Shown piece by piece: positions 2,141-45,133 of a stretch of DNA of 64,000 nucleotides (positions within the stretch are counted from its first letter, which is position 1; each line of letters opens with the position of its first letter). The notes beneath the pieces are model-generated. The model did no database searches. It saw only the letters and a program-made list of their open reading frames with translations, and was not told the DNA's origin. The stretch is taken from the NCBI GenBank assembly GCA_041650295.1, contig JBAZLM010000004.1:51860-115859 (forward strand), read 5' to 3'. The DNA comes from Candidatus Omnitrophota bacterium. GTDB lineage: Bacteria > Omnitrophota > Gorgyraeia > Gygaellales > Profunditerraquicolaceae. Both the position numbers and the translations under genes were made by a program.

Positions 2141-3541
2141 GTGAGAGTAAAGTCTGTTTTTAGTTGTTCCAATTGCGGATATCAATCGCCAAAATGGTTG
2201 GGTAAGTGTCCGGATTGTAATAGTTGGAATTCTTTTGTAGAAGAGGATTATGCTGCTCCCGCTTCTTCTGGGATAAAAGAAAGAGTTTCTTTATATAAAG
2301 ACGCACCTGTACTTTTAAAAGATGTAGTGGCTTGTGATGAAGATAGGATAAAAACTAATATTGTTGAGCTGGATCGGGTTTTAGGTGGTGGGATTGTTAA
2401 GGGTTCAGTAATTTTAATTGGTGGTGACCCTGGAGTTGGTAAGTCTACTATTTCGTTACAGGTTTCTAATCATTTAACTAAGCAAGGCATCGGCGTTCTT
2501 TATGTAAGCGGAGAAGAAAGCGTTGCGCAGACTAAATTACGCGCTAAACGTTTAGGTGAGGCCGGAACAGATAATCTTTATATTGTTAATCAAACGGATT
2601 TATCTTTAATCGTAGAGTATATAAAAAAATTAAAGCCGCAAGTTGTAATTATTGATTCAATTCAGGTAATTTTTGATTCTGGAATTAGTTCATCTCCAGG
2701 AAGTGTCAGTCAGGTTAGAGAATGTTCGGGGATTCTGACACAGCTCGCTAAAACTACCGGAACTTCAATTTTTATTATTGGCCATGTCACTAAAGAAGGT
2801 ACTTTAGCCGGTCCGCGGGTTTTAGAGCATATCGTAGATACAGTTTTATATTTTGAAGGCGATCGTTTTGCCATTTATCGGATCTTGCGGGCGGTAAAAA
2901 ATAGATTCGGTTCAACTAATGAAATTGGTGTATTTGAAATGGGATCGACTGGTCTATCGGAAGTTAAGAATCCGTCAGAGATTTTTCTCTCTGAGCGACC
3001 TAGTGATGTTTCCGGAACGATTGTTACTTCGATTCTAGAAGGCACACGTCCACTTTTGGTAGAGATTCAGTCGTTGGTTTCTCGCTCTAGCTTTGGCTAT
3101 GCACGTAGACGGGCGCAAGGTTTTGATTTTAATCGCTTGTCACTTTTGGTTGCTGTTTTAGAAAAGCGTATGGGCCTAGCTCTTGAGGCCGAAGATATTT
3201 TTATTAATGTTGCGGGTGGCATAAAAATTGAAGATCCCGCCGCAGATTTAGCAGTTTGTGCGGTAATTGCTTCAAGTTTTCGCGAGCAGGTAGTTTTACC
3301 TAAAACTGTAGTTTTAGGCGAAGTAGGATTAAGTGGTGAGATTCGCAGTATCTCTCAAGTGTTAACCCGCATTAATGAAGCAGAAAAGCTAGGTTTTAAA
3401 CATTGTATCTTGCCGAAAAATAGTGTTAAGAATATTAAATTGAAAAAATCAGAGATGGAGATTATTCCAGTTTCTACGTTGAAAGAGGCCCTAGACATTA
3501 TCTTAATATCATCTGCTAAATTGAATAGGGAAGGAGCATAA
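2141..3541 (+). CDS. radA: DNA repair protein RadA/Sms
   Basis: GTG start. N-terminal C4 zinc ribbon CSNCGYQSPKWLGKCPDCNSW, Walker A GDPGVGKST, the KNRFG motif and a Lon-protease-like C-terminal domain. Confidence 0.9.
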   Translation: MRVKSVFSCSNCGYQSPKWLGKCPDCNSWNSFVEEDYAAPASSGIKERVSLYKDAPVLLKDVVACDEDRIKTNIVELDRVLGGGIVKGSVILIGGDPGVGKSTISLQVSNHLTKQGIGVLYVSGEESVAQTKLRAKRLGEAGTDNLYIVNQTDLSLIVEYIKKLKPQVVIIDSIQVIFDSGISSSPGSVSQVRECSGILTQLAKTTGTSIFIIGHVTKEGTLAGPRVLEHIVDTVLYFEGDRFAIYRILRAVKNRFGSTNEIGVFEMGSTGLSEVKNPSEIFLSERPSDVSGTIVTSILEGTRPLLVEIQSLVSRSSFGYARRRAQGFDFNRLSLLVAVLEKRMGLALEAEDIFINVAGGIKIEDPAADLAVCAVIASSFREQVVLPKTVVLGEVGLSGEIRSISQVLTRINEAEKLGFKHCILPKNSVKNIKLKKSEMEIIPVSTLKEALDIILISSAKLNREGA

Positions 3542-4522
3542 ATGAATTTATTATTAGCACGGGTTTTATTTATCTTAGGTAGTATGGCGATTGGTTATCA
3601 GACAGTGGTGATTAATAGTTCTGGTTTAATTGGTATGGTGATTGGCGCGGCAATCGCCTTGCTGATGATTATGGCCGAAGCAGGATTACGTAAAGTTTCA
3701 GTGAGTGGATTATCGAGTGCGGTTTTTGGCTTAATCTTAGGTTTAATCATGGCTAAGTTGGTGGGGGATGCTTTTAGTATCGCACCTATCGATGCGTTAA
3801 TCCTTTCTAGAATTAGGGTGGGATTAACTTTAATTTTTTGCTATCTGGGTATGGTTATGGCTTTGCGCGGCAAAGATGAATTTAATATTATTATTCCTTA
3901 TGTGCGCCTGCGTAGACAAGATCAGGCTCAAGACGTAGTACTTTTAGATACTAGTGTAATTATAGACGGAAGAATTGTTGATCTTTGTAAGACACGTTTT
4001 TTAAGCGGAAAAATTATTATTCCAAAATTTGTTTTACGTGAATTACAGCAGATTGCTGACTCTACCGATCCGATTAAGCGCCAGAGGGGCAGACGAGGAC
4101 TAGAGATTCTGAATAACATTCAAAATGAACCGGGTATGGATATTACAATTCATGAACAAGATTTTACTGAGACTAGTGAAGTGGATGCTAAGTTAGTGTT
4201 GTTAGCTAAATTATTAGAGGCTAAAATTTTGACGGTTGATTTTAATTTAAATCGAGTGGCTAGCATTCAGGGAATTAAAGTTTTAAATATTAATGAGTTG
4301 GCCAACGCCTTAAAGCCGGTAGTTTTTCCTGGCGAAGAGATGCAGATTAAGTTAATCAAAGAAGGGAAAGAACATAATCAGGCAGTAGGTTACCTTGATG
4401 ATGGTACGATGGTGGTAGTGGAAGATGCACGCAGATTAATTGGCCAAGATGTTAAAGTAGCGGTAACTTCTGTATTGCAAACTCAAGCTGGTAGAATGAT
4501 CTTTACTAAAGTTGAGAAATAA
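3542..4522 (+). CDS. Membrane-anchored PIN/TRAM domain protein (YacL-like)
   Basis: Four predicted N-terminal TM helices, a PIN-like segment ([12 protein letters not shown]) and a C-terminal TRAM-like beta domain. It sits downstream of radA, as yacL does in Firmicutes. Confidence 0.6.
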
Positions 4523-26794: not shown

Positions 26795-27891
26795 GGTAGT
26801 TTTGAAATTAAGTAAAGACTAGTGGATAAAACCACGATGTGGCTCAGGCAAGCAGCTAAAGAGGGCATTAAGAGGCCAGATTTTCCAATGGCTAGAAATA
26901 TTGCATCTAAAACATAATAAAAAAATCCTACCACAATAGAAACTCCAATTGCTGACATCCCGGTAGCACGTTTACGCATCATTAAAGAAAAAGGGATCCC
27001 TAATAAAATAATGATGATACTAGTAAATGGCGAGCAGAAGCGTTGATAAAGATCTACTTTTAAATTACGCACAATTCCGGTGGCCCCGCTTTTCGAGAGT
27101 CTCCAGATATAATCTTCCAATTGGTGAATATCCATCTGTTCCGGTTTTTGGCGCAGACTGGCCATAATTTTGGGAGTCTCCGGTATATCCATTATTTCTT
27201 CATCCAGATAAAGCGGCTCGTCAATAACTTGTCCGTTTTGGTCAAAGCCATAAGTAATGCTTTGGTAAAATCTCCAAAGTCCGTCTTTATAAACGCCTTT
27301 GGTAGCAATTATTTTTTTAACGATATTTTGATGTCGATCGTGTTCTAATATGGTAATGCCTTCCATGGTATTTGTTTCTGGTGAGAATCGATTAATAAAA
27401 AATAATCTATTTTTTAAGCCATACATGGATAAGTTAGTAATTGCTTGACCAAGCTTAAGTCTGTTTTTTGCAGAGCCTTGTTCGATTTGCACTTTTATTT
27501 TTTGATTTTCTGCTAAAGATGAAGGAACAAATCGATCACCTACCCAAAAAACGGCAAAGCTGATCACTAGGCCAAAGATCAAAGCATTACGCGCAATTTC
27601 ATAGATACTTAGCCCGCTTGAACGCATAGCAATGATTTCGTTATTGTGATTAAGCCGTCCAAATGTATAAACGGTGCTTAAAAGACAAGCAAAGGGAGAG
27701 ACCTGCACAAACATTACCGGTAGATATGATAAATAATAGCGGATTAAAAGGACCAGGGTAGTTTTGTGCCTGATTACTTCGTCAAGATTGGAAAGTAGAT
27801 CAATAACCACATAAAGAAATAAAAAAAGAAAGATACAGGATAAGAATATTAAAAGTATTGATTTGAGGATATAGCGATCTAAGATGCGCAT
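26791..27891 (-). CDS. lptG: LPS export ABC permease of the LptF/LptG (YjgP/YjgQ) family, probably LptG
   Basis: Six-TM YjgP/YjgQ architecture with a periplasmic beta-jellyroll insert. It is the second gene of a tandem pair on the minus strand. Confidence 0.7.
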   Translation of the reverse strand: MRILDRYILKSILLIFLSCIFLFLFLYVVIDLLSNLDEVIRHKTTLVLLIRYYLSYLPVMFVQVSPFACLLSTVYTFGRLNHNNEIIAMRSSGLSIYEIARNALIFGLVISFAVFWVGDRFVPSSLAENQKIKVQIEQGSAKNRLKLGQAITNLSMYGLKNRLFFINRFSPETNTMEGITILEHDRHQNIVKKIIATKGVYKDGLWRFYQSITYGFDQNGQVIDEPLYLDEEIMDIPETPKIMASLRQKPEQMDIHQLEDYIWRLSKSGATGIVRNLKVDLYQRFCSPFTSIIIILLGIPFSLMMRKRATGMSAIGVSIVVGFFYYVLDAIFLAIGKSGLLMPSLAACLSHIVVLSTSLYLISKLP

Positions 27892-28982
27892 AATTTATAA
27901 GTTAAGACTCCGCCGACACTGGTAAATAAAATATTAGGTATCCAAAGCGCTAAAGCCGCTGGCAACGCTCCTTCCATGGCTAGGGCCACAAAGCCAATAT
28001 ATAGCGGATAATAGCAGACGATAATTAAGACTGCGATTCCGATATTAATAGATTTTTCGCGTCTGCGGGTAATAATTCCTAACGAAGAACCTAAAAGCAT
28101 AAATACAAAACAACTAAAAGCTAGCGCCAGTTTTTCATGGATTTTGGTAATTAAAGGGGCAGGAGTTATTCCTTCACTTTTGAGTTTTTTTGCCTCTTTT
28201 TTCAATTCTTTGATAGTCATCTCTTTATATTTTTTATCAACGATCTTATTTTGCATCTGCGCCATATCTAAATTCATAAAATAAGTGCGGAAATTAAGTT
28301 TATAAAAATTTGTGGGATTTTCTGGGTCCGGTTCGTCACTGGTACCGTCAATAAGTTTTAATTTAATGGAATTTTTATCTGGGATAGTAATAAATTCTCC
28401 AGCTTTGGCAATAATCGTGCGGGTAGGCCTATCTTCTCCCTGAGGTTCATAGATGCGGATGTTATTAAGTCGGTTTTTTTTCTGGTCTACATTGTAAATA
28501 AAAAGAATATATTTTTGAAATGAATCAATAAAAACTCCCTCTTCAAATGCGGCGGTAGGATTTTTGATCCCCATCTCTTGTAAAACTTTGCGATAAGCAA
28601 AATGAGAGTATGAAGCTGCTTGATCATTAAATACAGCTAAGCCCATACTTAAAACTAGACCAATCATTAATAAGGGTAAAATTAATCTAAATAAGTTTAC
28701 ACCACTTGATCTAATAGCGATTATTTCATTATCTCCCGAAAGCCTGCCAAAAGCTAGTAAGATGGCGACCAAAATTGATATTGGTAGAGTATAAGTAACG
28801 ATATAGGGAGTTAAATAAAGAAAAATTTGTACAACGCTAAAAAAATCCACTCCTTTATTAATAACTAAGTCAGCGATACGTTTTAAATTACCAATTAAGA
28901 CCATTAAAAAAGTGAGAGTTCCTAGGCAAAGTAGGAGTGGGCCGATAAATTCTCTTAAGATGTAATTGCGCAGTATCTTCAT
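27879..28982 (-). CDS. lptF: LPS export ABC permease of the LptF/LptG family, probably LptF
   Basis: Paralogue of the downstream gene with the same YjgP/YjgQ topology. It is first in the pair. Confidence 0.7.
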   Translation of the reverse strand: MKILRNYILREFIGPLLLCLGTLTFLMVLIGNLKRIADLVINKGVDFFSVVQIFLYLTPYIVTYTLPISILVAILLAFGRLSGDNEIIAIRSSGVNLFRLILPLLMIGLVLSMGLAVFNDQAASYSHFAYRKVLQEMGIKNPTAAFEEGVFIDSFQKYILFIYNVDQKKNRLNNIRIYEPQGEDRPTRTIIAKAGEFITIPDKNSIKLKLIDGTSDEPDPENPTNFYKLNFRTYFMNLDMAQMQNKIVDKKYKEMTIKELKKEAKKLKSEGITPAPLITKIHEKLALAFSCFVFMLLGSSLGIITRRREKSINIGIAVLIIVCYYPLYIGFVALAMEGALPAALALWIPNILFTSVGGVLTYKLCAS

Positions 28983-29075
28983 AGTTGAGTATCCTGTCCC
29001 GCCTCAAATTATTCGGCGGGATAACTTCGCACAAATAACTTACGTTCACCGCTGTTGCGTAAGTTATGCGCTTAG

Positions 29076-29801
29076 TTAATTGGCTAGCGTCATTAATAAA
29101 ACTATTTTAGCTCCGGCAGCTTTTAAACATTTGGCTGCTTCACTAGAAGTAGCCCCGGTAGTAAATACATCATCAATTAAAAGTAAATTTTTATCTTTAA
29201 TTAATTCCGGTCGCTTAATTGAAAAACTTCCGGCGACATTTTTGCGACGTTGCTCTGGATTGAGTTCGGTTTGAGTCTTTGTGGGTTTATTACGAATTAA
29301 AGCTTGGTTAATCATTTCTTTGTTAAATTCTTTAGCAATTTCTTGACTCAAAATCTCTGCTTGATTGAATTCTCTTTCTCTTTGTCGGCTTTTATGCAAA
29401 GGTATAGGGATAATACAATCCAAGTGTTGGATCGGCAGAGAGTAATCTTTAATAAAGGTCTTCATAATTAAGCCTAAGTGTTTTCCTAAATAATCCTTAT
29501 GTTTATATTTAAATTCATGCACTAGTTGTTTAATCGAACCGGTATAGCGGCAAGGGCTAAATGCTCGATCAAAATAAAACTGCTCCTTGTGGCAGCTAAA
29601 ACAGGTGTTTTCTAAAATAGCTTTAGCATCCAGATGCCGGCCACATCTTAAGCAAAAAGGAGGATGATTTCTTTCAATTTTATCCCAACAGGCAAAACAA
29701 AGTGGATCTTGTTCTCTAGTTGTTTTTAGCTTGTCTTTACAAACCAAACAGCAGTTTGGATAAATTAAATCTTTGAATCCTTTAAACAAACCACTTAACA
29801 T
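29076..29801 (-). CDS. comF: ComF-family phosphoribosyltransferase-domain protein
   Basis: N-terminal double zinc ribbon (CLVC...CFAC; CLRCGRHLD...CFSC) and a C-terminal PRTase motif LLLIDDVFTTGAT. Confidence 0.75.
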   Translation of the reverse strand: MLSGLFKGFKDLIYPNCCLVCKDKLKTTREQDPLCFACWDKIERNHPPFCLRCGRHLDAKAILENTCFSCHKEQFYFDRAFSPCRYTGSIKQLVHEFKYKHKDYLGKHLGLIMKTFIKDYSLPIQHLDCIIPIPLHKSRQREREFNQAEILSQEIAKEFNKEMINQALIRNKPTKTQTELNPEQRRKNVAGSFSIKRPELIKDKNLLLIDDVFTTGATSSEAAKCLKAAGAKIVLLMTLAN

Positions 29802-35979: not shown

Positions 35980-36381
35980 GGGGGTGAAAGGGTTCGACTT
36001 GAGATGGTCGGATAAGAGTAGCATGCCGCGGATGTAAGGTTAGCCGCGTTAAAAATCCTTGCACAATCTAAACGCAAACACAAACGTGTTCAACCGTTTA
36101 GCACCAAAGGCAGCAATGCCTTTGATGCCTGCGGGCGTACAAGCCTTAGCGTTTAATTAAACGTTAAGCCTCTAGCCGTTTTTGCCTACGAAACGGATTA
36201 GGGCCTTAGTAGGATAGCTTCGTCAGGTTAGCCTTTGTGGATGAAGCGAGATTTTAAAGGCTGCTCCTTGCAAATCCTGTCTGTAGAAGTTGCAAGGTTA
36301 AGACAAATTACAAGGCTAAGCATGTAGTGACTTTTATTTGATTACTTAAGGACCCCGGTTCAATTCCGGGCACCTCCACCA
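35980..36381 (+). ncRNA. ssrA: tmRNA (ssrA)
   Basis: The 5' GGGGGUG pairs with the 3' CACCUCC including the G3:U wobble. The 3' tRNA-like domain is GGACCCCGGUUCAAUUCCGGGCACCUCCACCA with encoded CCA. It lies 7 nt after the smpB stop. An internal ORF-like tag frame runs 36074-36160. Confidence 0.85.
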
Positions 36382-43128: not shown

Positions 43129-43284
43129 TCTGTTGATATAATCAAAGCTCTTTAAGATAAGATTTTTGTAGGGATGTGATGGGGCGTGCCCCGTTACAAA
43201 CCAGAAGCTTAAAAAATTAAAGAGATAGATGTGGTGGGGGCGTGCCCCGTTGCATCTAAGAATCTTTAATTATAATAGATGCAA

Positions 43285-43359
43285 CGGGGCGTGGCTCAGT
43301 TTGGCTAGAGCGCCTGCTTTGGGAGCAGGAGGTCACAGGTTCAAGTCCTGTCGCCCCGA
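43285..43359 (+). tRNA. tRNA-Pro(TGG)
   Basis: Hand-folded. Acceptor is CGGGGCG/CGCCCCG. Anticodon stem is CCTGC/GCAGG with loop TTTGGGA. T arm is ACAGG-TTCAAGT-CCTGT. Discriminator is A and no CCA is encoded. Confidence 0.8.
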
Positions 43360-43447: not shown

Positions 43448-43640
43448 TTAGAATTAGAGGGCCTACTTGCTCGCTGCGCTCGCAAGTACTGCGCTAGATA
43501 AAAGATTAGAGGTGATTGTTCGGCCCAGGCGCATTAAAATAAATAAAAGTGCTTGCCCTTGCTCGCTGTGCTCGCAAGGATTTCGCCGAATAAAAGATTT
43601 AAGGTGCTCAATTCTGCCCAGGCGCATTAAAATTTTAACC
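43430..43640 (+). repeat. Two degenerate tandem units of about 95 nt, each ending with a copy of the tRNA-Arg 3' end (GGCCCAGGCGCATTA) and each containing a GCTCGC-type hairpin
   Basis: The 3' end copy is GTTCGATTCGGCCCAGGCGCATTA in the tRNA, TGTTCGGCCCAGGCGCATTA in unit 1 and TTCTGCCCAGGCGCATTA in unit 2. The hairpin CTTGCTCGCTGYGCTCGCAAG is followed by ATAAAAGATT in both units. The two units are about 80% identical. Confidence 0.7.
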
Positions 43641-43655
43641 AAAATTAATAAGTTT

Positions 43656-44873
43656 ATGAAAAATTGGCAAAAAATATTTAAAATAGTTGTTATAGTAGTT
43701 ATATTGTTTAGTTTGTTTTATGTATTTTTAATGCTAGAAGCTAAGCATTTAATTATTAAAGTAATCTCAGATGGTAGTGGTCGCAAAACTACGATTGACA
43801 AGCTAGAAATCAAGCCTCCGTTAAATTTAGAGATAAAAAATTTAGAGATTCAAGGCGTGTTTAAGGCCAGCTACATTTATTTATCACCTAGTATTCCCAA
43901 TCTTTTAAGAGGCAGAGTAGCATTAAATAAAGTAAGAATTTTTAATCCCCAGCTTACTTATCAGCGTATTCCACCTCCGGTTATTGTACAAGATAGTACT
44001 GCAGTAGTAGAGTTTCCTCAGGCTGAGGTAGCTGTGCCGGTTGTAACGGCACCTGCTCCTGTTAGCCAGGATAATAAAGTTTTTCCTATAATTATAAAAA
44101 GCTTAAAGGTAAAATCTGGTTTATTAAATTTTATCGATTCTACAGCAACTGCCGGTAGCATTAAAATTATAATTAAAGACATCCAATTTTATATTACAAA
44201 TTTATCTACAGTTAATATTAATGCTGTTAGTAACTTTAATTTAAGGGCAAGTATCTCTTGGAATACCGGAGAGCCGGATGGTAGATTATTTTTGCAGGGC
44301 TGGGCAAATTTTGGCAAGAAAGATGTTTTAGCTAAATTAAAGATTGAAGATATCGACGCGATTGTTTTTTATCCATATTATTCAACCTGGGTTAATTTAG
44401 AAAAAGCGCGGATTGATAAAGCTAAACTTAATTTCAGCAGCGATATTAAAGGCGTGAATAATAATGTGGATGCGGTTTGTCATTTAGAGTTAATTGATAT
44501 GGTGCGCAAAGTGCGGCCTCCGCAGGAACCGCAGCAAAAAGCAGAGAGACTAACTGATGCAGTATTAGATATGTTCAAATCGATGAATCAGGGAAAAGTA
44601 ATTTTAGATTTTACTTTACATACAAAAATGGATCAACCAGCTTTTGGTTTTGCTAATATTAAATCTGCTTTTGAAGGAAAAATTATGGAAGGCAAGGCAA
44701 GGGCTGGATTGCGGCCGCAAGATATGCTATTATGGCCTGGTAAGTTAGTGCAAAGTGGGGTAAAGAGCGGAATAGATCTTTCTAATGCGGTAGTGGATGG
44801 CGCAGTAGCTTTAGGTAATGGAATAAAAAAGTTTTTTGAAAGAACAATAAATACTCCGGCTTCGGAGAATTAA
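43656..44873 (+). CDS. Membrane-anchored AsmA/DUF748-like protein
   Basis: One N-terminal TM then a beta-rich periplasmic region with the repeating pattern typical of AsmA-like proteins. The ORF-track start at 43467 extends through the tRNA-derived repeats and was rejected. Confidence 0.5.
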   Translation: MKNWQKIFKIVVIVVILFSLFYVFLMLEAKHLIIKVISDGSGRKTTIDKLEIKPPLNLEIKNLEIQGVFKASYIYLSPSIPNLLRGRVALNKVRIFNPQLTYQRIPPPVIVQDSTAVVEFPQAEVAVPVVTAPAPVSQDNKVFPIIIKSLKVKSGLLNFIDSTATAGSIKIIIKDIQFYITNLSTVNINAVSNFNLRASISWNTGEPDGRLFLQGWANFGKKDVLAKLKIEDIDAIVFYPYYSTWVNLEKARIDKAKLNFSSDIKGVNNNVDAVCHLELIDMVRKVRPPQEPQQKAERLTDAVLDMFKSMNQGKVILDFTLHTKMDQPAFGFANIKSAFEGKIMEGKARAGLRPQDMLLWPGKLVQSGVKSGIDLSNAVVDGAVALGNGIKKFFERTINTPASEN

Positions 44874-44881
44874 TTTTATTT

Positions 44882-45046
44882 TTAATTTATGGTGGCTGTA
44901 GCTCAACTTTAGCGAGCAGACAACTTACGGCAGCGTGAGCAACGTAAGTTGTAGGCGAAGCCGTCTGCGAGCTAATCCCGTGTTTACGAGAAAATTCCAG
45001 AGAATTTTCGAGTGGTTTAACACGGGAGAAAGAGTATTAATTGTTC
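44882..45046 (+). repeat. Degenerate duplicate of the tRNA-His 5' half (27-nt direct repeat TTAATTTATGGTGGCTGTAGCTCAACT at 44882-44908 and 45047-45073) followed by a 138-nt hairpin-rich insert
   Basis: Identical 27-mers, the second of which begins the intact tRNA-His. The insert contains ACAACTTACG-N13-CGTAAGTTGT and CCCGTGTT...AACACGGG inverted repeats. Confidence 0.7.
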
Positions 45047-45055
45047 TTAATTTAT

Positions 45056-45133
45056 GGTGGCTGTAGCTCAACTGGTTAGAGCTTCTGATTGTGGTTCAGA
45101 AGGTTGCGGGATCGTGCCCCGTCAGCCACCCCA
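45056..45133 (+). tRNA. tRNA-His(GTG) with genome-encoded G-1 and CCA
   Basis: Very close to E. coli tRNA-His (GGTGGCTGTAGCTCA...). Anticodon stem is TCTGA/TCAGA with loop TTGTGGT. The 3' end is AGCCACCCCA. Confidence 0.85.

Follow-up and report, generated by a model that had tools for sequence, protein, structure and literature searches.

A Probable Palindromic Repeat of Omnitrophota Lodged in a Partial tRNA-His Gene Copy beside the Intact Gene

Introduction

The 64,000-nt stretch analysed here, referred to as the window, belongs to a Candidatus Omnitrophota bacterium (assembly GCA_041650295.1, contig JBAZLM010000004.1, positions 51,860 to 115,859) and carries the 5' part of its tRNA-His gene twice, with a hairpin-rich segment between the two copies. 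What is this segment, and how did a tRNA gene come to stand in part on one side of it and in full on the other? An earlier note, drawn up from the letters of the window, had proposed either a scar left at the 5' end of a tRNA gene by insertion or recombination or a small structured RNA that co-opts a tRNA leader. Our analysis leads to an answer to which we assign a probability of roughly 75%: the segment at 44909-45027 is a copy of a high-copy palindromic repeat family, named E here, lodged between nt 17 and 18 of a truncated tRNA-His copy, with a compensating duplication that keeps an intact gene.

Results

The 27-nt sequence TTAATTTATGGTGGCTGTAGCTCAACT occurs exactly twice in the window, at 44882-44908 and 45047-45073 with a spacing of 165 nt, as the earlier note had stated, and the chance expectation for such a repeat is none with three mismatches tolerated. 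With two mismatches allowed, the repeat grows to 33 nt (44876-44908 and 45041-45073). The second copy leads from a leader at 45041-45055 into an intact forward-strand tRNA-His(GTG) gene at 45057-45133, with a genome-encoded G-1 at 45056 (ARAGORN; Rfam tRNA model, 58.4 bits). The first copy is a partial tRNA-His gene on the same strand (44876-44908), composed of 15 nt of leader, G-1 (44891) and nt 1-17 (44892-44908), and it stops in the D-loop before G18. It is followed on the forward strand by domain 1 of E (44909-44975), a long imperfect hairpin with compensatory changes in all helices and a covariance-model match of 118-148 bits, and by hairpin 2 (44976-45027), which has the form TCCCGTGTT-TAC...GTG-AACACGGGA around GAAAATTC-CAGA-GAATTTTC. 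The two inverted repeats reported for the segment, ACAACTTACG/CGTAAGTTGT and CCCGTGTT/AACACGGG, were found again, and folding gave a far better result on both strands than shuffled sequence (z = -4.2 and -4.8). The roughly 10 nt after the first copy (TTAGCGAGC...) had been taken for a degenerate D-arm; they are actually the conserved 5' end of E, with the family consensus TTAAYGAG. A derivation of this end from the remainder of the D-arm, which would make E a tRNA-derived RNA, was rejected because its "GAGC" bases belong to the freely covarying helix S2. Just past E, GAAAGAG (45028-45034, forward strand) is probably a decayed remnant of about nt 18-25 of tRNA-His (GGTTAGAG), by analogy with other tRNA-linked copies, and would mark the far edge of the insertion site. 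The order of the locus is leader with His nt 1-17, E, a few nt of His 18-24, and leader with His nt 1-76; E is inserted at nt 17/18, in the first copy of a tandem duplication that runs from the leader to about nt 24. The complete tRNA-His with its own leader is separated from E by 29 nt, and no ORF of at least 50 aa lies between the two 27-nt repeats. Additionally, 17 nt at the 3' end of the preceding DUF748 ORF (44840-44856) are 94% complementary to 45032-45048 just past E (GAGTATTAATTGTTCTT); they may form a long-range transcript stem enclosing the tRNA fragment and E, or may reflect chance in AT-rich DNA.

The E core extends from TTAAYGAG to the 3' strand of the TCCCG...CGGGA hairpin, which gives 119 nt in the window, and between its start and the second hairpin lies a long hairpin around AACTTAYGG/ACRTAAGTT. 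Specifically, domain 1 of the window copy consists of helix S1 (TTAGC/GCTAA), a GA/GA internal loop, S2 (GCAGAC/GUCUGC) and S3 (AACTTACG/CGTAAGTT), the last capped by GC-GTGA-GC, plus a small side hairpin S4 (GGC GAA GCC). The outer stem of hairpin 2, TCCCG/CGGGA, is constant across the family and its interior varies. Among the first three sequences, 96% of the proposed pairs were formed versus 35-41% with partners slid, and 13 of 44 pairs carried double (compensatory) changes; with 150 sequences, 92.4% of the model pairs were formed versus 28-44% in the slid controls, with double changes in 38 of 41 pairs. The hairpin structure of E is under selection and its base pairing is strongly maintained. 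Several other candidates were rejected: a hammerhead-type three-way junction because S4 is missing from most members of the family, a TTAA target duplication as the origin of S1 because S1 varies between copies as a complement (TTAGC/GCTAA, TAAGT/ACTTA) and not as a direct repeat, and a group I intron or homing-endonuclease cassette for E itself because it has no ORF and no Rfam intron match. A search of the insert against Rfam 15 gave no match except the tRNA and a chance-level YrlA hit overlapping it (15 bits, E-value = 2.8); the whole window gave tRNAs and a transfer-messenger RNA (tmRNA) only, and blastn against a plasmid collection returned only the tRNA genes themselves.

Two covariance models, R1 and R2, were built from copies at related loci and match the window copy at 148 and 118 bits, respectively (E-value of about 1e-20 to 1e-26). 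In 50 Omnitrophota sources, which are the window and 49 related loci (the loci compared here and below bear our L numbers), 22 copies were found with the first model and later 26, located upstream of tRNA-His, in the tRNA-Pro/tRNA-Arg spacer, inside the tRNA-Arg intervening sequence and at window 28986-29079. A loose DNA pattern of the central hairpin recovered at least 122 copies on at least 119 contigs of a metagenome collection, and the covariance model found at least 150 copies in 558 kb of those contigs, up to eight in one 11.5-kb contig, a density that is biased upward because the contigs were chosen for carrying at least one copy. The pattern GTCTGCGA...AGAGAA proved too strict and had no match in the metagenome and viral collections. 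Among the matches listed, most copies adjoin protein genes, often beside a Shine-Dalgarno sequence or after a terminator, and 35 are antisense-like to the flanking ORFs versus 18 sense-like. Many copies form inverted composite arrays, in which domain 1 and hairpin 2 are followed by a domain 1 in reverse orientation; opposite-strand model hits overlap, and some right flanks are the reverse complement of domain 1. Exact flanking repeats of at least 13 nt occur at 11 of 122 copies among the matches listed, nearly all of them visibly tRNA-linked, the maximum in the mismatched-pair control being 11 nt. Among exact repeats of at least 8 nt, copies without a tRNA showed no flanking direct repeats above that control.

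The second copy in the window (28986-29079, minus strand) is shorter, has a covariance-model score of 65.9 bits (E-value = 9e-11, filters off) and carries neither a tRNA nor a flanking duplication. It sits between the minus-strand ORFs 29076-29801 (241 aa) and 27879-28982 (367 aa), which we take from their sequence to be ComF-like and LptF/G-like, respectively. It ends 3 nt ahead of the start codon of the downstream ORF, and its 3' flank AGGA is a candidate ribosome-binding site. Because the family occurs in both orientations and in inverted composite arrays and has no Rfam match, E is a DNA repeat rather than an RNA gene. This hairpin-forming repeat, very abundant in Omnitrophota, had not been described before and is similar in kind to the repetitive extragenic palindromes (REP/BIME); in the literature we found nothing on this family or on such tRNA duplications for small repeats.

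Concerning the orthologous site, the gene order RNase PH, Ham1, tRNA-Pro, tRNA-Arg(TCT), DUF748, tRNA-His is kept in 41 genome loci and several metagenome contigs. The DUF748-family ORF of the window (43656-44873, forward strand, 405 aa, Pfam PF05359) is the upstream neighbour of the tRNA-His region, and its protein has 261 homologues; those with names are all annotated as Omnitrophota, and one from an Omnitrophota metagenome-assembled genome is 100% identical. The spacer between the DUF748 stop and tRNA-His measures 7-24 nt in most loci, which is the ancestral, empty state of the site (L003/L004, L049, L006 and about 20 more). E is present in the window and in L031, and in L048, the closest relative (79% DUF748 identity), it is nested downstream of an HNH-endonuclease cassette, which stands alone in L001, L011, L012 and others. 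The L031 locus, with 52% DUF748 identity, has the same junction, CTCAACT/TTAGCGAG, and the copy upstream of tRNA-His in L032 is 5'-truncated. In each genome the tRNA 5' fragment matches the resident tRNA (G6 in the window, A6 in L031). L031 and L017 are NCBI genome assemblies and L048 is a Logan assembly, from different samples. The site is polymorphic for the insert and the relatives with the same arrangement have no second functional tRNA, which answers the comparison that the earlier note had suggested; the collapsed repeat that it had considered finds no support, the same architecture being present in the independent assemblies L048, L031 and L017. Short-read assembly might have collapsed the number of tandem units in the window, of which L017 has two.

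Other inserts also occupy this site. An HNH cassette of about 560-590 nt lies between DUF748 and tRNA-His in L001, L011, L012, L016, L023, L025, L033, L034, L035, L047, L048, L050 and L051. It begins with the tRNA-His 5' half to nt ~37 (just past the anticodon), followed by a near-consensus TTGACA/TATAAT promoter, a Cys-rich ORF of about 150 aa, a short leader and the intact tRNA-His; the cassette thus follows nt 37 in at least 10 genomes with the same layout of partial and intact copy. The ORF of the L048 cassette has a weak match to Pfam HNH_3, the 5' half is variably decayed, and an extra D-loop hairpin is seen in L011, L034, L035 and L051. A different cassette in L015 (4237-4624) has a tRNA-His fragment to nt 12, two GC-rich hairpins (TCCGCCAG..CTGGCGGA-like), a small ORF whose C-terminus, judged by eye, is presumably GIY-YIG-like, and the intact tRNA-His; a hairpin of this type also abuts 28-nt tRNA-Pro 5' fragments in L022, L031 and L041. 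The HNH and GIY-YIG-type cassettes at the tRNA-His site of relatives are separate insertions from E. On the 3' side of tRNA-His, L003/L004 (1490-5400) carry a methyltransferase, a large serine recombinase, DUF2924, HTH_17 and a type I restriction subunit, and L006 (5316-9221) an HTH protein, a DNA methylase and a UvrD-like helicase; the 3' side of the gene therefore seems to be a hot spot for the integration of islands as well.

Transfer RNA sequence directly adjoins about 20 of the 122 pattern-found metagenome copies (among the matches listed) and the majority of those at the Pro-Arg-His locus. In the sense layout, E stands in the D-loop, preceded by the leader and tRNA nt 1-17 and followed by nt 18-24 and then by filler, leader and the complete tRNA. 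The junction ...CTCAAnT/TTAAYGAG at nt 17/18 of tRNA-His is found in the window, L031 and L017 (twice in L017, in tandem), and likewise at nt 17/18 of tRNA-Arg(TCT) in L011, L012, L014, L017, L024, L027, L032 and L132. L048 (His) and L021 (Arg) present the same layout with a shorter fragment ending ...GTAGC, which may be the result of a later 5-nt deletion, and in a variant at tRNA-Glu (L114 and L164) the fragment ends at about nt 11. In the antisense layout, E stands in the T-loop, between the trailer with nt 76 to 57 and nt 56 to ~50, after which come the trailer and the complete antisense tRNA. Its junction, ..GGAATC/E/GAACC.., occurs at Gln(CTG), Gln(TTG), Val, Arg(CCG), Arg(CCT) and others, the case at Gly(TCC) (L072) being messier. 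In a third geometry, E directly follows the 3' end of a complete tRNA (Pro, Thr), starting 0-1 nt past the tRNA-Pro 3' end in eight loci. In both the sense and the antisense arm-loop copies, the tRNA sequence is contiguous across the two flanks of E: every E linked to tRNA-Arg is succeeded by GGATAG(A), which corresponds to nt 18-23 (18-24) of that tRNA, GAACC.. after the antisense copies is T-arm, and GGTTAGTGC comes after E in L032-4197. The partial copy always stops about where the arm hairpin has its foot, 4-9 nt past E, and on the outer side it extends 4 to 45 nt outside the tRNA.

In L011 and L041, E stands without duplication between the last tRNA-Arg exon nt and the first nt of the intervening sequence. 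Since these two loci, and most copies of the family, have no flanking repeats, the duplication is not an automatic product of E insertion. It is absent from E elsewhere and accompanies only those copies whose simple insertion would have inactivated an essential single-copy tRNA, either as part of the same event or through later selection. Additionally, the tRNA-His site holds two subfamilies of E, one with S4 (window, L048 and L031) and one without S4 that resembles the tRNA-Arg-linked copies (L017), which speaks for a preferred site and against one accident passed on by descent. The arm loops of tRNA genes are places where E either inserts preferentially or survives at a high rate. Gene conversion joining tRNA-Arg and tRNA-His via shared D-arm sequence was also considered and rejected, the chimeric acceptor stem that it predicts not being observed.

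The tRNA-Arg(TCT) gene itself is split in its anticodon loop, between nt 34 and 35, in L006 (~3316-3946), L007, L011, L012, L021, L023, L025, L027-L030, L034, L035, L050 and L051. The intervening sequence measures 330-620 nt and often holds a PD-(D/E)XK_5 ORF, and ARAGORN misses these tRNAs. In the manner of group I introns, U is the last exon nucleotide and G the last one of the insert; the Rfam group I model had no match in the intervening sequence of the relatives, and a group I intron is the probable identity.

A scan of 156 intact tRNAs, a biased sample because the loci had been chosen for DUF748 or E, found a partial copy of at least 13 nt within 700 nt of 29 of them (about one in five). 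The inner ends of these partial copies abut E in 11 cases and, in at least five cases, a second hairpin unit ending ..GATAAAAGnTnTAAGGTGCTTG, including two units at window 43449-43630. Further abutting inserts are a TCCGCC..GGCGG hairpin, which also starts a GIY-YIG-type cassette, and the HNH cassette; the remaining ones may be mostly hairpin-like, and the arrangement in L033 perhaps approaches a bare duplication. The two units at 43449-43630 stand in tandem after tRNA-Arg(TCT), are about 90 nt each, and consist of a hairpin CTTGCTCGCTGCGCTCGCAAG, a motif CTAGATAAAAGATTTAAGGTG and the tRNA-Arg 3' end from the T-loop (TTCGGCCCAGGCGCA plus trailer). They form a second hairpin repeat family, whose layout is the mirror image of that of E at tRNA-His. 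Units of this type also follow tRNA-Arg in L003, L009, L014 and L017, and related ones stand at other tRNAs (L065, L142). A third kind of tRNA-5'-fragment repeat is found in L090 (oriented, ~930-1131), where at least four tandem units of about 49 nt come after an E that trails tRNA-Pro, each starting with ATGCGCCTGT (leader plus the first 8 nt of tRNA-Arg) and continuing with a hairpin CCTTCGACTTCGCTCAGGAC.

Apart from these repeats, 15 nt upstream of tRNA-Pro in the window (43244-43258) are perfectly complementary to the tRNA-Pro leader and its first 6 nt (43276-43290), with two GGGGCGTGCCCC hairpins similar to the start of tRNA-Pro ahead of them (region 43175-43290). In the transcript, this segment could sequester the 5' end of tRNA-Pro; alternatively, it could stem from another rearrangement. 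Finally, the tmRNA of the window lies at 35980-36381 (Rfam tmRNA, 173 bits), and its predicted tag, ANTNVFNRLAPKAAMPLMPAGVQALAFN, is unusually long at 28 residues.

Discussion

Several observations weigh against a copy of E with a compensating duplication at tRNA-His. In the window, GAAAGAG and GGTTAGAG agree at just five of eight positions. Many tRNA-Arg-linked copies share diverged leaders (TATATG versus TTAATG), and part of the recurrence at tRNA-Arg is therefore vertical inheritance and not repeated insertion. For the copies without a tRNA, neither a short target-site duplication nor a clear target consensus was seen; a miniature inverted-repeat transposable element, for which a short target-site duplication around terminal inverted repeats is expected, is disfavoured on this ground for exact repeats of at least 8 nt, and no autonomous parent element with matching ends was seen in the sequence analysed. 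No transposase or mobilising enzyme was encountered, tblastn over 1 Mb of sequence with an IS608 TnpA query giving no match, which is a weak test. Relative to their neighbour genes, all 26 copies found in the window or at the Pro-Arg-His locus are in sense orientation, and a role at the RNA level therefore retains some plausibility there. Finally, the origin of the compensating duplication is something that we infer, and the nick-and-displacement model for it is drawn from the geometry of the junctions.

According to that model, which we prefer, a nick would be made at the foot of the arm hairpin, 4-9 nt beyond the insertion point, and strand-displacement synthesis would then run a variable distance into the outer flank, leaving a tandem duplication whose truncated copy bears E. 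Such a nick, followed by displacement synthesis of variable length, would account for an inner boundary that is nearly constant and an outer one that varies, and the preference for arm loops, together with pairing kept in both orientations, suggests that E may be recognised or inserted as folded single-stranded DNA. Alternatively, E might enter one copy of a transient tandem duplication that is trimmed afterwards, and the data presented here are equally consistent with either route. Direct repeats, once present, would permit both precise loss and tandem amplification, which can explain the patchy distribution on the one hand and the arrays of L017, L032 and L086 on the other. We regard as doubtful the wider proposal that E, a further hairpin family or more, and two kinds of endonuclease cassette all insert into the loops of tRNA-gene arms folded as single-stranded DNA by a mechanism that itself makes the compensating tandem duplication, with a nick at the hairpin foot and displacement synthesis. 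Concerning expression, no promoter-like site was found between E and tRNA-His, one being present upstream of tRNA-Pro, and therefore E is probably transcribed and then removed by RNase P processing: it would be co-transcribed with DUF748 and tRNA-His and cut off at the RNase P maturation of the latter. By analogy with REPs, E may serve as a 3' stabilising hairpin for the upstream mRNA, and no evidence demands a function for it.

The room left by the sense-strand copies leads to the possibility that tRNA operons use E as a functional non-coding RNA module, for instance one that acts in processing or stability, or as a small RNA that RNase P and RNase Z set free, with the tRNA 5' fragment as part of the transcript. 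Its very strong covariation, the exact filling of tRNA-tRNA spacers, with a start 0-1 nt after the tRNA-Pro 3' end in eight loci, and a 5' fragment identical to the resident tRNA of each genome would all agree with such a role. However, a hairpin acting as single-stranded DNA predicts equal covariation, the element is missing at the same site in close relatives with a patchy presence overall, and L032 retains just a 5'-truncated copy. Most metagenome copies lie away from tRNAs in mixed orientation, and together with the inverted composite arrays they render an RNA module unlikely. The mixed orientation also overturned a strictly sense-oriented RNA element, which had rested on the 26 sense-strand copies, and the small RNA of the earlier note is set aside as well, given a family that is found in both orientations to its neighbour genes and mostly far from tRNAs.

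The insertion proposed in the earlier note stands, as an event unlike those of integrases; an integrase scar does not, since there is no integrase, the insert is only 119 nt, and E occurs elsewhere hundreds of times without long flanking repeats. Such a scar, or the miniature remnant of an integrative element, would make the 27-nt repeats the attL/attR cores of a tyrosine or serine recombinase using the tRNA 5' end. Foreign DNA between direct repeats with a tRNA part is indeed the arrangement of tRNA-linked islands (PMC9897764), and the hot spot at tRNA-His, with its downstream islands bearing a large serine recombinase (L003/L004) or other cargo (L006), points the same way. These islands sit 3' of tRNA-His, however, and not at the site of E, and the insert is without an ORF and of 119-138 nt only. 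The contiguous tRNA on both sides of E and an outer boundary that varies from 4 to 45 nt among loci are also unlike a fixed att core, and we consider this explanation very improbable. The least probable of all is an assembly artefact, or a plain decaying tRNA pseudogene from a duplication without insertion. Short-read metagenome assemblies can mis-join repeats, and contig breaks are frequent here, L003 beginning inside the tRNA-Arg repeats and L017 ending inside its second unit. Nevertheless, the same junction is found in independent assemblies of different samples, the insert fits the family model with the E-values given above, and by Rfam the sequence between the repeats is not tRNA-like.

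A copy of the repeat family E in a truncated tRNA-His gene, accompanied by a compensating duplication, is a single locus of modest weight; the main interest lies in an arm-loop and duplication pattern that recurs over many tRNAs and several kinds of element. Nearly all inspected partial tRNA copies abut a hairpin-forming insert or an endonuclease cassette, with junctions in arm loops and an end at a constant distance of a few nt past the insert. Such a pattern suggests that selfish DNA can settle in essential genes and spare the host, owing either to a specific mechanism or to strong selective filtering. If true, an insertion-coupled duplication would amount to a self-rescuing invasion of essential single-copy genes, undescribed for bacterial repeats. 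The family is an undescribed one of Omnitrophota, a phylum known almost solely from metagenomes, and such repeats break assemblies, make spurious tRNA fragments and can mislead the prediction of RNA genes.

Compared with known systems, E is closest in kind to REP/BIME. REPs are repetitive extragenic palindromes of enterobacteria and pseudomonads, and the REPIN doublets are mobilised by RAYT transposases. Like E, they are short imperfect palindromes, intergenic and in high copy number, with compensatory changes in the stem, transcribed within operons, as is probable for E, and found in both orientations and in inverted mosaic arrays around a linker hairpin. E differs in its larger size (90-140 nt), its two domains and its tandem GA internal loops; it starts with TTAAYGAG, whereas REPs have a conserved 5' GTAG, and no RAYT-type gene was found with E in the 1 Mb searched by tblastn with the IS608-TnpA-like query. 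To our knowledge, a recurrent tie to tRNA arm loops and partial tRNA duplications is not a feature of REPs. Rickettsia palindromic elements are also small palindromic repeats inside functional genes, RNA genes included, where the host molecule tolerates them; they remain within the functional gene product, whereas the copy disrupted by E is non-functional and has an intact duplicate alongside.

Duplications of att sites have been described for tRNA-targeted islands and prophages (Williams 2002 and Reiter 1989, cited in PMC9897764). As at the E locus, a complete and a partial tRNA copy in direct orientation surround foreign DNA in these islands. They are kb-sized, encode an integrase, possess a fixed att core and nearly always duplicate the 3' part, in contrast to the 119 nt without a gene at the E locus, where the duplicated part is 5' (sense) or 3' (antisense) and the partial copy reaches 4-9 nt past the insert. 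The tyrT operon of E. coli contains 178-bp tandem repeats with the tRNA-Tyr 3' end (rtT RNA), and there, too, tandem units stand by a tRNA gene, each joining a terminal tRNA segment to unrelated structured sequence. The closest counterparts of these units are the tRNA-Arg 3' units at 43449-43630 and the tandem pair of L017; there is no sequence relation, and the E. coli units are not in a dispersed repeat family. Finally, free-standing homing-endonuclease cassettes differ from E, which has no ORF and is present at hundreds of non-tRNA sites, and yet the HNH- and GIY-YIG-type ones at tRNA-His of the relatives are like E in their arrangement, with a partial 5' copy, the cassette, a leader and the intact tRNA.

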